Part shown: positions 8,216 through 13,932 of the stretch, one piece after another
Position numbering within the stretch: position 1 is the first letter of the stretch
Layout: the number at the start of each line of letters is the position of its first letter
DNA from: Escherichia phage EC147
Sequence record: ON185589.1
Length of the DNA: 46,060 nt
Reading direction: 5' to 3' (one strand)
Program-made: the position numbers and the translations under genes
Notes under the pieces: model-generated
Database searches by the model: none
Seen by the model: the letters and a program-made list of their open reading frames with translations, nothing else
Told to the model about the DNA's origin: nothing

Positions 8216-8632
8216 ATGGTTGATGAATTTTTCACTGACGCAGAAATCACGCAGCAAATCGTGAAATTAGCGCCACCGATGAAGCAGATTGATCCAGATT
8301 TAATGGTGGCATGGATTGAGCTTGCAAAGGAATTTGTTTGCAAGAAGCGGTTTAAAGAATCATATCCTAAAGCGGTTGCCCTTTATACTTTGCACCTTAT
8401 GACGCTTGATGGAGCCATGAAGCAAGAAGGGGAAAGCGTAGAGAGTTACTCACGGCGCGTGGCGTCATTTTCCCTGACTGGTGAATTTAGCCAGACATTT
8501 GATCGCGTGTCCGGCGATTCAAGCGGAAAAGAGATTAGACAAACTCCGTGGGGTAAAATGTATGAGACGTTAAATAGAAAAAAAGGCGGTGGATTTGGCC
8601 TTGTGACTGGATTTCGGAGGCGCTGCAAATGA
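8216..8632 (+). CDS. hypothetical head-tail joining region protein
   Basis: 138 aa, RBS GGAGG; position between capsid and tail genes. Confidence 0.45.
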
Positions 8633-9000
8633 ACTATAACGAGATCGCAAGAATGGCAACCGAAGGAATTAACTTCTTTAGTGATAGCAACGGTGAGTTT
8701 AAGTGCATAACGCAGCGTGGAAGCGTTGAAATCATCGGAGGCGAAGAAGTAGAAAAGCCAGAGATTAGTGTAATGATTAAGGGTTTAATTAGATCACCCA
8801 AAGTCCGAGAGGTTGACGGCGAGACAATACGAGTAACCGACAAGTTGGGAGTTTTTAACAATAAAGTTGAAATTAAGAACGGGTATCATATTGATGTTGA
8901 TGGTGAGTTATATGTTGTAGTTGAAGCAAGACCAATCAGGCAAACCAATGTCACTGTTGCTTATCGGCCTATTTTGAGAAGGATTTCTGTACATGGCTAA
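8629..9000 (+). CDS. hypothetical head-tail joining region protein
   Basis: 123 aa; ATGA start/stop overlap with upstream ORF. Confidence 0.45.
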
Positions 9001-9436: not shown

Positions 9437-9824
9437 ATTAATGCTATCGGCGCGTAAGGCGCTGGCGACTGAATACGAAAGCAGATTCAAGATCGCTTAT
9501 GAAAACGTAGAGTTTACGCCACCTGGTGACGGTTCGCCGTGGTTGAAGTTTGACTATGCCGAAGTTGATACAGAATACTTGTCATTGGATCGAAAATGCG
9601 TTTCCTGTATCGGAATGATTCAGGTTGGCATTGTGTTTCCACCAGGTTACGGAACTGACAGGCCGCGCGTTCTCGCTAAAGAGATTGCGCAATTCTTTTA
9701 CGATGGTAAAATGTTGGAGCATGGTTATATATATGAGGGTGCAAGAGTTCACAAGCCGCTCAAGAGTGAAAGCGGTTGGCTTCTCCCTGTAAGATTTTAT
9801 GTTCGAATTGAAACAAAGGAGTAA
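9426..9824 (+). CDS. putative tail terminator protein
   Basis: 132 aa ORF directly upstream of major tail protein gene; call by synteny. Confidence 0.4.
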   Translation: MHYELMLSARKALATEYESRFKIAYENVEFTPPGDGSPWLKFDYAEVDTEYLSLDRKCVSCIGMIQVGIVFPPGYGTDRPRVLAKEIAQFFYDGKMLEHGYIYEGARVHKPLKSESGWLLPVRFYVRIETKE

Positions 9825-9829
9825 AAATT

Positions 9830-10492
9830 ATGCATTTACCAAATGGATCGCAAATTTTCGTTGAGAGAAATCGCGGCAGCGAAATCCAAGCAAAGGCAGT
9901 GTCAAACGATAAAGATCCTGTATTCACAGTTGCATCTGGTGGAACTGCGTACAAGAAAGGTGATTATGTGATCATCACTGCGTCTTCTTGGGGTAAGCTG
10001 ATTGATCGCGTTATGCGTGTAAAGGCTGACGGTAAAGAAACAAGCGTGACTCTTGAAGGCGTAGATACTAATGATCCGAACGTTTTCCCGACTGGAGGTA
10101 CTGCATCTTTTGCCAAAATTGATGCATGGACTGAGATCCCTTGCGTTCAAGATTTGTCGCAGGACGGCGGCGAACAGCAATACTACACTTATCAGTGTTT
10201 GGCAGACGATCAGGAGCAACAGTTGCCTACCTATAAGAGCGCCGTTTCTCTTACCTACACTTTTGCGCACGAATACGATAACGCGATCTATCCGCTATTA
10301 CGTTCAGCAGATGAATCAGGCGAAGTAACGGCGCTTCGCATGTATGTACCAAAAGCAAAAGAGATGCGTTGCTGGGCTGGTGTACTTTCGTTTAACGAGA
10401 TCCCACAAACGACCGTTAACGAAATTGAAACTGTTTCCCTTTCTGTATCCCTGAAAAGTCGATTCACCTTCCTACCTTCTCAAGTAGCATAA
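9830..10492 (+). CDS. major tail protein
   Basis: 220 aa, RBS AAGGAG, followed by strong terminator and then chaperone/tape-measure genes. Confidence 0.6.
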   Translation: MHLPNGSQIFVERNRGSEIQAKAVSNDKDPVFTVASGGTAYKKGDYVIITASSWGKLIDRVMRVKADGKETSVTLEGVDTNDPNVFPTGGTASFAKIDAWTEIPCVQDLSQDGGEQQYYTYQCLADDQEQQLPTYKSAVSLTYTFAHEYDNAIYPLLRSADESGEVTALRMYVPKAKEMRCWAGVLSFNEIPQTTVNEIETVSLSVSLKSRFTFLPSQVA

Positions 10493-10498
10493 TCACAA

Positions 10499-10522
10499 GG
10501 GGCGTTGCGCCCCTTTTTTTGT
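10499..10522 (+). terminator. rho-independent terminator
   Basis: GGGGCG-TTG-CGCCCC followed by TTTTTTT. Confidence 0.7.
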
Positions 10523-10534
10523 TACTGTACAATC

Positions 10535-10579
10535 ATGATACACGATTCATAATCAATTCTTTTAACAAAAAGTGCTGTT
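10535..10579 (-). promoter_or_regulatory. copy of conserved 21-bp element with -10-like TATCAT, antisense to tail genes
   Basis: minus-strand reading AACAGCACTTTTTGTTAAAAG + 18 nt + TATCAT; sits between terminator and tail chaperone RBS. Confidence 0.35.
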
Positions 10580-10591
10580 AAGGAGAAAGAA

Positions 10592-10909
10592 ATGTCAAAA
10601 ATGAAATTGACGCTTGGGCCGCTTCCTGACTTTAAATTACCAGTGAAATTTGCAATGCCCAACGGAGAAGATCAAACAATTGTATTTACGGTTCGTCATC
10701 GCAAAACAAGTGAGATTCACGAGCGATACACTTCGGACAATCCAATGAGCGATGTTGAAATGATCACCTTCCTTGCTTCCGGTTGGAATCTTGATGATGA
10801 ATTTAACGAAGAAAATATTAAACAGCTTCTTGATTACTACCCAGCAACAGCAATCGGATTAACTAGCGCATACATGAAAGCGCTTGCGGGGCAGCGAGTA
10901 AAAAACTAA
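10592..10909 (+). CDS. tail assembly chaperone (lambda G-like)
   Basis: 105 aa, RBS AAGGAG; ends at slippery heptamer A_AAA_AAC; directly upstream of tape measure gene. Confidence 0.75.
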   Translation: MSKMKLTLGPLPDFKLPVKFAMPNGEDQTIVFTVRHRKTSEIHERYTSDNPMSDVEMITFLASGWNLDDEFNEENIKQLLDYYPATAIGLTSAYMKALAGQRVKN

Positions 10910-11220
10910 AAAGGGCGGTTTACCTGTTTTATCAGAAACCGCCGACAGATGCAGAGCTTGAGGCCGTTGGCCTTACAAGGGCAGACTATGAAGGAGAATA
11001 TCCGCCAGAGGTTATATTTGATGAAAGCATGATGCAATCATGGGATATATTTTGCGCAATGCAAACGCAATGGAGATGTTCTGGCGGTGGCGCTTACGGA
11101 TTTGATTATAATGTCTTGCCTATGCTTTTTGAGATTTACAAGGTTGAGGATCGCGAGATGGCGCTAAACGACTTGCGAATCATGGAACAAAAAGCACTTG
11201 AAATGATGCATTCAAAATAA
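10592..11220 (+). CDS. tail assembly chaperone G-T fusion via programmed -1 frameshift
   Basis: -1 frame is open from the slippery site (10900-10906) through 11220, covering ORF 11029..11220; stem-loop 7 nt downstream; conserved G/GT arrangement before the tape measure gene. Confidence 0.65.
10900..10943 (+). promoter_or_regulatory. -1 frameshift site: slippery A_AAA_AAC plus downstream stem-loop
   Basis: heptamer 10900-10906 in X_XXY_YYZ register of the upstream ORF; 7-nt spacer; 8-bp stem GGCGGTTT / AAACCGCC (10914-10943). Confidence 0.65.
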
Positions 11221-11242
11221 GCGCCTACGGGCGCTTTTTTAT
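11221..11242 (+). terminator. terminator-like hairpin before tape measure gene
   Basis: GCGCC-TACG-GGCGC followed by TTTTTT. Confidence 0.5.
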
Positions 11243-11259
11243 TACCTGGAGGATTAATA

Positions 11260-13932
11260 ATGTCAGAACAATACGCAGGCTTGACGCTTGGGGTTGATGT
11301 ATCTCAACTCAACAATGCTGTAAAGTCTTTGCAGCAATTCAAGAAGGCAAACGACGACGCAAAGGGAAGCGTTGAGGGTTTTGTTGATTCAGAGGTTGTT
11401 GCAAGACAAAGATCCAAACAACTGGCTGAGGAATTGGCAAAGCAGAAGCAAGAATTTAAAGCAATTCAGTCGGCAATAGATCCGACAGCAAGCAAAATGG
11501 ATAAGTTGCGCCAGGCTGCGACACAGCTTGATGCGCTTTGGAAAAAAGGAATTGTGCCGGATGATACATTCTTTGAGTTAGGATCAATTCTTGAGACGCA
11601 GCAAAACAAACTGATCGCAACTAAAAAGGCTCTAACTGAAGAAGGCCGCGCGGCGCTTGAGGAAGCAAAAAACAAGGCAAGGGCAGAGGCTGAGGCAAGA
11701 AAGTTTATTGCGGCATTGCAGGCGCAAGCTGACGCAGCGGAAAAAACAAAATCAGAGCTTGTCGAAATGAGAGCCGCACAACTTGGAGTTAGTGCAGAGG
11801 CCGCGCCATTTATTGCAAAAATGAAGGAGCAGGAAAAACAAGCCTCAAAACTTGGCGTTTCTATGGGGCAGTACAAGCAAGCAATGGCGCAATTGCCAAT
11901 GCAAATCACTGACGTTGTTACTTCTCTTGCTTCAGGTATGCCAGTATGGATGATCGCAATCCAGCAGGGGGGACAAATCAAGGACTCATTCGGCGGTGTT
12001 GCTAATACGTTTAAAGCGCTAATGACATTTGTCACGCCTTTAAGTGTAGGAATGACGGCACTGACTGGTGCTCTTGGTTATGCTGCATATAATGCATACA
12101 AAGCAAATGCACAATTGAAGGAGATCACAAAAACCGTTCAGGAGGCAACTGGTCTTTCTGGTGATTTTGCGGAGAGGATTGCAACTGGAATCCAGGCGCT
12201 ATCTGACAAGACAGGTGAGAGCGCCGATAATCTGGCAAAGGCATACATAAGCACTAAGGATGGAGCAACCGAGGCCATACAAAAACTCGTCGATGTTGGA
12301 TTTACCTATGACGAAGCAAAGGCAAAAGTAAACGAATACAAAAACGCATCAAGTTTTGTAAGTCTTAACAATGAAATCGCTGATCATAAAAACAAAGTTC
12401 TTGAGCTTGGCGATTCATGGTATGCGGTCTTAAAAGCAAAGCGTGATTATGCTTCACCTTCCGGCGGGCTGTTGGGGAAAGAGCTTGGTTATGTGAATCC
12501 AATGCTGCAATTTGCAAAGAACACCTATGAGGATATAGGAAAGATCGTAAAAGATGCGAATAAGGATATGGCGGAACGAGCAGCACGCATCGACAGAGAA
12601 AACCTTTCCTTAAACAGAGTTCGAGCGGCGCAAGAGGCTTTAAACAAAGCCATAGAGGATCAGAAGAACGTAGCAAGGACAGCAGACGAAGAGTTGAAAA
12701 AACGAGCGGCTGAGAACGTTGAGTTCAGGCGAAAAGAGCTTGAAGAGGCGAAGAAGGCACAGCAGCAAAAGGAAAAAGTTGGTGGAGTTGTAAAAGCACC
12801 AACAGAGCAGCTTGATAAGGAGTTATATGTTCTCAAAGCGCAACTTGAAACACTAAAAGAGCACCGAACTGTAAATGATGTTATTTCACGCCAGAGGCAA
12901 TCTTTGTGGAGCATTGAAAAGCAGATCCAGATCCTGGAGGAAGCGCAAAGCAAACGTAAGCTGACAAAAGCGGAACAGGCGTTACTAAACGAGCAAAAAG
13001 CAGTTATTGCTATGGCAAAAGAAAAGGCCGAGATAGGCGATCAGATTGTTTTGCAACAGAGAAAGAATAAGCAATACCAGGAAGGTCTTAAATTCATTCA
13101 GCAAACATCAGATGCTATTGACGCTATGAACTTGCGACAGTCTGGAGCTACAGATCTGCAAATCCAGCGAGAGCTTGAGTTGAAGAAGTTGCGAACTGAT
13201 TATGTTGCTGGCGGAGGTAGTATCGACGATGAAATTTATCAGCAGATGGAAGCAAAGCTGAAAGAGTATTACGCCACTGAGGATCAGCTAAGAAATAACT
13301 GGATTGCAGGAGCAAAAAACGCATGGGAGGTTTACGGACAAGATGCAATGGATATGTACGGAAACGTGCAAGATATTGCAAGCCAGGCGCTCAACGGTCT
13401 AACCAACCAAATGGCTACATTCCTTGCAACAGGCAAGGCAAACTTTAAGAGCTTCGCAACGTCAATCATCCAAATGATTATCCAGATGATCACGAAGATG
13501 GTTATCTTTAATGCCATATCTGGTGCGATTGGCGGTGACACTTGGACGATTGGAAGCCTTCTTAAGAATGTTGGATTTGCAACTGGTGGATACACTGGCG
13601 ACGGCGGGAAGTATGAGCCAGCAGGTGTTGTCCATAAAGGCGAGTTTGTCATGACGAAGGAGGCCACGAAGCGGATCGGAGTTGGAAACCTTTACAAAAT
13701 GATGCGCGGTTATGCAAATGGCGGCGTTGTTGGCGGAACTTCATACACTGGCGGCGGCGTTTCATCAGGAGCAACAAACCTTAATATTGGTGGGATTAGC
13801 GTTGATATTAACAACGGAAACGATCCGAAGGGGTTAGAGACTGGCGTAAAAATGATTTTCACTGATATGATTAAGCGTTCCTGTACGCAGGGTGGGGAAG
13901 TTTACGAATTTGTTATGTCTAAGCGGGGGTGA
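11260..13932 (+). CDS. tail tape measure protein
   Basis: 890 aa; long Ala/Lys/Glu/Gln-rich coiled-coil region; Gly-rich C-terminus; RBS GGAGG; follows G/GT chaperone. Confidence 0.9.

Follow-up and report, generated by a model that had tools for sequence, protein, structure and literature searches.

A predicted −1 frameshift signal at the tail assembly chaperone genes of Escherichia phage EC147

The tail assembly chaperones gpG and gpGT of phage lambda have reportedly been studied by Levin in 1993 and by Xu, Hendrix & Duda in 2004, 2013 and 2014. The lambda G/GT frameshift is not known to need a downstream structure. The two proteins are made at about 30:1 and neither is found in virions; binding of the tape measure protein is a function of the G moiety, and the T moiety brings in the tube protein (PMC5009743). 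For the A6C heptamer of IS1 (insA-insB'), −1 frameshifting in E. coli has been proven at a level of <2% (PMC12903888; PMC4066793). The product is a low-level transframe fusion arising shortly before the upstream ORF ends, with no established stimulator (PMC4066793). Among T1-like phages, the genome announcements of Stevie and U136B mention a conserved frameshift or slippery sequence in the tape measure chaperones. In phage TLS, the tape measure chaperones are called tfmA and tfmS, and the record gives tfmS as a CDS joined from two pieces, flagged ‘non-experimental’. Published proof by protein analysis, ribosome profiling or reporter assay was looked for and found for none of the T1-like phages.

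We analyzed a stretch of 46,060 nucleotides from Escherichia phage EC147 (ON185589.1), called the window here. Its region 9800–11300 is ~96% identical to Hanrivervirus phages, among them JLBYU09, pSf-1, and PGN590, and the window comes from a T1-like siphophage that is Hanrivervirus-like (Drexlerviridae, Tempevirinae). The features of the locus are as follows.

9830–10492, + strand: tail tube (major tail) protein gene, the upstream neighbour (Pfam Phage_tail_3, E = 1.5e-63)
10497–10515, between the tube gene and G: terminator-like hairpin (terminator scan)
10592–10909, + strand: G, short tail assembly (tape-measure) chaperone of 105 aa (Phage_TAC_4, E = 1.3e-30; PHROG 569/17368)
10900–10906, + strand: slippery heptamer A_AAA_AAC in X_XXY_YYZ register, with the P site on a Lys codon and the A site on an Asn codon
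10907–10909, + strand: G-frame stop TAA, directly 3' of the heptamer
10906–11220, + strand: −1-frame T extension of 104 codons and a stop (DUF1799, E = 3.9e-12; PHROG 17368 and PHROG 680)
10914–10943, + strand: RNA hairpin (predicted fold), starting 7 nt past the heptamer
11219–11236, between T and the tape measure gene: terminator-like hairpin (terminator scan)
11260–13932, + strand: tape measure protein gene, the downstream neighbour (TMP_2, 5.4e-35; Tape_meas_lam_C, 3.8e-22)

An AAGGAG ribosome-binding site, read from the sequence, lies at 10580–10585, 6 nt before the start of G. Phage_TAC_4 (PF08748) covers residues 1–105 of the G-T fusion with 106.6 bits (gathering cut-off 21.1), and DUF1799 (PF08809) covers residues 127–206 with 46.6 bits (gathering cut-off 26). 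A Pfam scan of the fusion at E ≤ 0.01 gave nothing beyond these two families, a PDB sequence search with the fusion gave no relevant structure, and NCBIfam holds no model for it. In the 213-position ‘tail’ profile PHROG 17368, positions 1–107 correspond to G and positions 109–211 to the −1 product, contiguously. Hence, a family of G-T proteins that are already fused, in the same register, exists.

Among known systems, the nearest are the chaperone pairs of TLS, Stevie, and U136B. The tfmA/tfmS pair of TLS is orthologous to that of EC147 (~74% nucleotide identity over 99% of the query), and it too has the tube gene on one side and the tape measure gene on the other. The TLS junction GTAAAAAACTAA (GTA AAA AAC TAA) is identical, and the same hairpin arms, GGCGGTTT and AAACCGCC, follow it. 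The two phages differ in genus, TLS being a Tlsvirus and the EC147 window being Hanrivervirus-like.

The lambda pair resembles that of EC147 in gene position, in the production of a short and a −1-extended chaperone, and in having the motif near the end of G. The lambda heptamer, G_GGA_AAG, differs from A_AAA_AAC and is closer to the G_GGA_AAC found in prophage relatives of EC147. Unlike in lambda, the stop abuts the heptamer in EC147 and a stable predicted hairpin then follows. The lambda G and T proteins belong to Pfam families other than PF08748 and PF08809, and the EC147 fusion (Phage_TAC_4 and DUF1799) has no Pfam match to them at E ≤ 0.01. By analogy, then, the EC147 site would work like lambda G/GT, yet it is not a member of the lambda sequence family.

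IS1 shares with EC147 the identical A_AAA_AAC heptamer and the E. coli translation system, but its product is a transposase, whereas that of EC147 is a putative virion assembly factor with a hairpin 7 nt downstream of the heptamer. In the dnaX and IS3-family sites, as in EC147, a stable stem-loop follows the heptamer after a short spacer. A stem-loop of this type should lie 5–9 nt 3' of the heptamer and be selected beyond coding, and the predicted EC147 fold has both properties. Upstream of the EC147 heptamer, the one candidate for a Shine-Dalgarno-like enhancer is a GGGG (10888–10891) that varies among relatives, and a clearly conserved stimulator of this kind was not seen.

The G ORF ends with GTA (10898–10900), AAA (10901–10903), AAC (10904–10906), and TAA (10907–10909). 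The first-pass annotation of this DNA had read the end of the chaperone ORF in the same way, with A_AAA_AAC in X_XXY_YYZ register, and the translation agrees with it. That annotation also described the −1 frame as open for 105 codons, to 11220. The frame has an upstream stop, TAG at 10864, is open from 10867 and ends at the stop 11218–11220; the figure of 105 holds if the re-read AAA (10903–10905) is counted, and otherwise 104 sense codons follow from 10906. The mechanically called ORF 11029–11220 is the 3' part of this frame. When G codons 1–105 are joined to the T extension by a −1 slip after Asn105, a GT fusion of 209 aa results. A_AAA_AAC at 10900–10906 is the sole canonical heptamer in the 40-nt overlap of G with the −1 frame. 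In the long + strand ORFs of the window, ~0.33% of codons carry an in-register X_XXY_YYZ heptamer (38 sites), and one heptamer within the 13-codon overlap would be only a ~4% event by chance. A long −1 frame follows 2 of the 38 (10900 and 8578).

The junction was compared across 21 annotated Drexlerviridae loci, 80 from IMG/VR, and 38 from prophages in bacterial genomes. The 101 viral relatives and the window made a set of 102, from which five loci with obvious indels were left out, giving 97 clean loci. Past the G stop, the −1 frame was open for 103–107 codons in all 97 clean Drexlerviridae loci (window included), and the +1 frame for just 4–38 codons in the same loci. All 38 prophage relatives, which span Pseudomonas, Comamonadaceae, Neisseria, Gilliamella, and others at 23–60% amino-acid identity, likewise carried a T-like ORF of 100–114 codons in the −1 frame.

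The coding signal was assayed as column entropy per codon position over 83 distinct relative sequences. Upstream of ~10895, position 3 of the G frame was the most variable (means 0.74/0.51/1.46); from 10910 onward, the most variable was position 3 of the −1 frame. The switch of codon phase between the two frames was thus placed at ~10895–10910, which bounds the site of the shift. The periodicity of 10910–11028 (0.64/0.53/1.34) matched that of 11029–11217 (0.72/0.43/1.20). It is clear that the coding frame switches at the heptamer. No ATG, GTG, or TTG occurs in the −1 frame from 10867 to 11029, and no properly spaced Shine-Dalgarno sequence before 11029 was found by reading of the sequence. Together with the −1-frame coding signal that begins at the heptamer, the lack of a start codon and of a Shine-Dalgarno sequence indicates that the region is translated in the −1 frame and that recoding is required. 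The junction peptide ...RVKN-LKRAVYL... was kept straight across the junction in relatives.

We therefore consider it very probable that −1 programmed ribosomal frameshifting at A_AAA_AAC produces a 105-aa G and a minority 209-aa GT. A programmed −1 frameshift in the tail assembly chaperone had been proposed in the first-pass annotation, and the gene context, the fused family, the coding signal and the conservation all favour that proposal. The EC147 pair has, moreover, every sequence-testable property of the G/GT class of Xu, Hendrix & Duda 2004: two ORFs between the tube and tape measure genes, a −1 overlap with no start at the overlap, an in-register X_XXY_YYZ heptamer within it, and an arrangement that is conserved despite divergence. 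By these properties, the EC147 site would belong to the conserved G/GT frameshift class.

In the mechanism that we propose, most ribosomes would end at the TAA at 10907 and release the 105-aa G, and a minority would slip back one base on A_AAA_AAC. In a tandem slip, tRNA-Lys would leave its AAA for the AAA one base back, and tRNA-Asn would leave AAC for AAA. The slipped ribosomes would read the −1 frame to 11220 and produce the 209-aa GT with the junction ...RVKN-LKRAVYL... We infer from the motif that the slippage is ribosomal and tandem. The predicted chymotryptic junction peptide of a tandem slip is MKALAGQRVKNLKRAVY, and that of Lys-only or transcriptional slippage would be ...VKKLKRAVY. 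The hairpin would stand at the mRNA entry channel while the heptamer is decoded, where it would impede translocation and probably raise the frequency of slipping. A_AAA_AAC counts as a weak E. coli motif, as judged from IS1 (<2%), and the slip efficiency at EC147 is probably a few percent. If the proteins act as lambda gpG and gpGT do, G would be the part that binds the tape measure protein and T the part that recruits the tail tube protein, and a low, fixed GT:G ratio would be a requirement of tail assembly.

The outer stem of the hairpin has 8 bp, formed by GGCGGTTT (10914–10921) and AAACCGCC (10936–10943), with 14 nt between the arms. The first-pass annotation had described this 8-bp stem, 7 nt downstream of the heptamer, and that part stands; its ‘14-nt loop’ is refined here, as it is predicted to close further. 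In the minimum-energy fold, the 8 bp are followed by a 2-nt 5' bulge, a 3-bp inner stem of CUG (10924–10926) with CAG (10933–10935), and a 6-nt loop. The hairpin lies within the minimum-energy fold of 10895–10975, which had z = −2.2 compared with dinucleotide shuffles. When 10700–11300 was scanned against Rfam at E ≤ 10, just sub-threshold chance matches appeared, and no family covers the hairpin.

As a recoding control, the 14 −1-frame codons after the stop were recoded synonymously, 500 times, according to phage codon usage. The native segment had −15.1 kcal/mol compared with −5.4±2.5 for the recoded ones, and none of the 500 recodings was as stable. In 29 of 49 distinct Drexlerviridae junctions, from loci that are not phylogenetically independent, the hairpin exceeded its recodings (P ≤ 0.01). 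It was significant in Hanrivervirus, Tlsvirus, Warwickvirus, Changchunvirus, Henuseptimavirus, and Tunavirus (T1). By the same test it was missing or not significant in Rogunavirinae, in WaterSpirit (L016), in Phc, and at L027, L061, L082, and L084. A divergent clade gave marginal values (P = 0.05–0.14), with the stem shifted by 6 nt. Among the prophages, GC-rich hairpins of unrelated sequence begin 6–7 nt past G_GGA_AAC, and 19 of the 36 distinct junctions, again phylogenetically non-independent, reached P ≤ 0.025; L134 was left out of this count since its test window was misplaced.

Over the 49 distinct viral junctions, 78.8% of the cells of the 8-bp stem were paired, compared with 29–52% when the 3' partner was slid. 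True double changes were limited to one pair (G-C vs. U-A) and came from the clade that uses the 6-nt-shifted stem, and most arm positions are under coding constraint too. With covariation so thin, it is by itself no proof of structure, and the synonymous-recoding test is the more informative one. In the 27 junctions with a GGCGG/CCGCC core in the outer stem, the wobble bases of the inner stem were nearly fixed (CTG in 27/27, CAG in 26/27), and the wobble base at 10944, just outside the stem, took three values. It may be noted that the core was the criterion by which these 27 were selected, so that its own invariance carries no weight.

The hairpin could instead be a by-product of coding for RAVY...QKPP, or serve another role such as mRNA stability, leaving frameshifting unaffected. 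This is the alternative to which we give most weight, although we still regard it as unlikely. Both arms fall within conserved codons, covariation is thin, several lineages by inference frameshift without a significant structure, and for IS1, where the heptamer is identical, no stimulator has been established. A by-product of the peptide is, however, hard to reconcile with a native segment whose stability exceeds that of 500 synonymous versions of its coding sequence by ~10 kcal/mol, with the occurrence of significant hairpins of unrelated sequence at the same offset in the distant G_GGA_AAC prophages, or with the near-fixed inner-stem wobble bases in core-bearing junctions where 10944 varies freely. 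A spacing of 7 nt is also within the usual range for stimulators of −1 frameshifting. We conclude that the hairpin, as predicted from sequence, is a real, selected and recurrent yet dispensable feature. Its probable role is that of a clade-specific enhancer of slippage that would set the GT:G ratio.

In all loci compared, the shift motif is formed at the last two sense codons of G. Its forms were distributed as follows.

A_AAA_AAC: 73 of the 97 clean viral loci, the window, T1, and TLS among them
A_AAG_GGT: one viral locus, WaterSpirit
A_AAG_GTC: six viral loci, Rogunavirinae
A_AAA_GTY or A_AAA_GCC: 17 viral loci, the divergent clade (L085–L101)
G_GGA_AAC: 30 prophage loci
A_AAA_AAC: seven prophage loci
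A_AAG_CCC: one prophage locus (L103)

Three canonical heptamers, A_AAA_AAC, G_GGA_AAC, and A_AAG_GGT, thus interchange in one register. Such a swap of canonical heptamers in the same register over deep divergence is as predicted by selection for ribosomal slipperiness. At the non-canonical sites A_AAG_GTC, A_AAA_GTY, and A_AAG_CCC, tandem re-pairing is impossible, and just the shifty Lys tetramer, A_AAG or A_AAA, is kept. Other than U_UUY and C_CCY, no tetramer is more prone to shift in E. coli than these two (PMC4066793). Judging by these motifs, tRNA-Lys alone may slip in the non-canonical lineages, and conceivably at the EC147 site too.

The 0-frame stop abuts the motif in all 97 viral loci and in 36 of the 38 prophage loci. 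The wobble base of the Leu codon that overlaps the stop was A in 47 and G in two of the 49 distinct viral junctions, and both bases keep the stop. The abutting stop either aids slippage or merely limits the dual-coding overlap.

The same fusion would arise at EC147 if tRNA-Lys slipped alone on A_AAA, in the P or the A site and possibly helped by the adjacent stop, with the junction ...VKK-LKRAVY; the hairpin and the AAC codon would then be secondary. The −1 arrangement persists in the A_AAG_GTC, A_AAA_GTY, and A_AAG_CCC lineages, where a shifty Lys tetramer is followed by a non-slippery codon, and this, with the shift-prone nature of A_AAG and A_AAA in E. coli (PMC4066793) and a stop that abuts the motif almost everywhere, speaks for a lone slip. 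The large prophage clade that uses G_GGA_AAC has no Lys codon to slip on, however, and most loci retain a full canonical heptamer, as is expected if both tRNAs re-pair. Moreover, the stop in the non-canonical lineages lies one codon past the Lys codon and so outside the A site during the slip. On balance, a slip of tRNA-Lys alone appears improbable for EC147, and tandem slippage on A_AAA_AAC is preferred.

Combinations of motif and structure differ by lineage. In Tempevirinae and Tunavirinae, the weak heptamer A_AAA_AAC is joined with a strong hairpin; in many prophages, G_GGA_AAC is joined with GC-rich hairpins; Rogunavirinae have A_AAG_GTC, with neither a canonical heptamer nor a hairpin. 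As a speculation that we ourselves doubt, the signal might be a tunable module made of the heptamer, the abutting 0-frame stop and an optional hairpin, the parts of which trade off across the Phage_TAC_4/DUF1799 family. If so, the lineages would differ strongly in their GT:G set-points, or an unrecognized stimulator would exist. The near-invariant adjacent stop could then be a stimulator, with a termination pause leading to −1 slippage.

Translation of ORF 11029–11220 (63 aa) as an independent gene from its own ATG, with no fusion, is very hard to maintain. Gene callers and many records do list a separate 192-nt CDS here, and the Met codon is kept in relatives (M147 is invariant). Nevertheless, the 119 nt before the ATG (10910–11028) evolve as −1-frame coding sequence with a periodicity like that of the ORF itself, and the peptide LKRAVYL...TDAELEAVGL is conserved from the G stop onward. 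The nearest GAGG is 17 nt off, and no Shine-Dalgarno sequence was seen by reading in the 5–10 nt before 11029. The PHROG 680 and PHROG 17368 alignments begin at residues 1–9 of the extension, and DUF1799 starts at fusion residue 127, 20 codons before Met147 (ATG 11029). The first-pass annotation had taken this ORF for the tail of a G-T fusion and not for an independent gene, with which gene context, PHROG 17368, coding periodicity and conservation agree.

Equally remote is transcriptional slippage, in which RNA polymerase would add one A to the A6 run at 10900–10905 and so bring T in frame (junction ...VKK-LKRAVY): six A's are short for productive slippage by bacterial RNA polymerase, the constant X_XXY_YYZ register with the G frame matters to ribosomes and not to a polymerase, and relatives with G_GGA_AAC, A_AAG_GGT, or A_AAG_GTC keep the −1 arrangement without a long run, the first two being canonical heptamers whose lack of a long homopolymer argues against this route. 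Slippage at homopolymeric stretches of A is known (review PMC5009743), and four public assemblies of relatives have A5 instead of A6, showing that the run is prone to length errors, but these A5 variants accompany other indels, which suggests sequencing error.

In all eight close Hanrivervirus records that were inspected, the two parts are given as separate CDSs or the T part is omitted, and the T1 RefSeq record is likewise. The Hanrivervirus records show a 318-nt ‘chaperone’ together with a 192-nt ‘hypothetical protein’ or with no second CDS. This 192-nt CDS is spurious, and the proper annotation should be G plus a 209-aa frameshifted GT. The EC147 coordinates permit a correct joined CDS, and their main value is for annotation. 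The proposal of a frameshift at EC147 is correct but known in kind, since TLS, Stevie, and U136B have already been annotated or mentioned in this respect, and it adds one more case to the very widespread G-T recoding. Mildly new is only the family-wide view, with heptamers that replace one another, a stop directly next to the site, and hairpins particular to certain clades.

Three other candidates in the window were rejected. A second frameshift at A_AAA_AAA (8578–8584) was ascribed to chance, since atuna, PHB07, Brooksby, and K50 do not keep the run; the −1 frame that follows it merely runs into the next gene. A pseudoknot between CUGU(U) (10924–10928) and ACAG (10945–10948), found by eye, would need a 1-nt loop across the 8-bp stem, which is sterically implausible, and its pairing is at odds with the predicted CUG/CAG inner stem. 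Besides the heptamer, the overlap holds a single shifty motif, G_GGG at 10888–10891, which is not conserved and lies upstream of the codon-phase switch. The same GGGG, 8 nt upstream of the heptamer, is the only Shine-Dalgarno-like candidate there; GCAGGG is found in TLS and GCCGGA in T1.

Non-canonical junctions, reading GCA AAG GTC TAA and GCA AAA GTY TAA, were found in place of the slippery heptamer at the G-T loci of four Rogunavirinae relatives (L018, L019, L079, and L081) and at the loci L085-L101, respectively. The 105-codon -1 extension was retained in all of these. In the four Rogunavirinae loci, no downstream structure reached significance.

The run of six A residues (10900-10905) was shortened to A5 in the IMG/VR loci L022, L026, L056, and L060, which are public assemblies of relatives, and T was consequently no longer in the -1 register. 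Since these loci also carry further indels in G or T, homopolymer sequencing error is the likely origin of their A5 runs. The difference between A5 and A6 may otherwise represent a genuine length heterogeneity of the slippery run.

A start codon just past the G stop was found in only one of the 102 viral loci, that of phage vB_EcoS_G29-2 (L005). There, a single change of AGG to ATG at the equivalent of 10912-10914, replacing Arg by Met in the T frame, created an ATG 2 nt past the G stop, and a 309-nt CDS beginning at this ATG is annotated in the phage record. Judged from the sequence, this lineage could also make free T protein by reinitiation.

Upstream of G, a run resembling a second frameshift site was considered:

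8578-8584, A_AAA_AAA run, in register (ORF 8216..8632; next ORF 8629..9000)

The stop of the virion structural/head-tail adaptor gene lies 48 nt 3' of the run, and ORF 8629..9000, in the -1 frame relative to ORF 8216..8632, overlaps it by ATGA. Despite this resemblance, the site was rejected because the run is unconserved: the equivalent positions read CGT AAG CAC in atuna and AAG AAA AAA in both PHB07 and Brooksby, and the run is not kept in K50 either. It is probably due to chance. The top database match for 8400-8760 was 'Campylobacter phage A123' (MG065669.1, unannotated; 99.4%). About 20 'Campylobacter phage' records match the same typical T1-like coliphage backbone, and their host label looks doubtful.

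Two terminator-like GC hairpins, each with a T tract, flank G-T:

10497-10515, directly 3' of the tube protein gene
11219-11236, directly 3' of the T stop

Terminators are annotated at the counterparts of both hairpins in the T1, G29-2, and AHP42 records. This arrangement suggests transcriptional attenuation, stepping expression down from the tube protein to the chaperones and then to the tape measure. At the T-tape measure junction, the 95%-identical relative L026 (IMGVR_UViG_2974632794) has an apparent deletion at the equivalent of ~11150-11262, so that the end of T (…EIYKVEDREM) runs straight into the beginning of the tape measure protein (SEQYAGL…). The apparent deletion may have arisen during assembly, or this may be a naturally occurring deletion variant.
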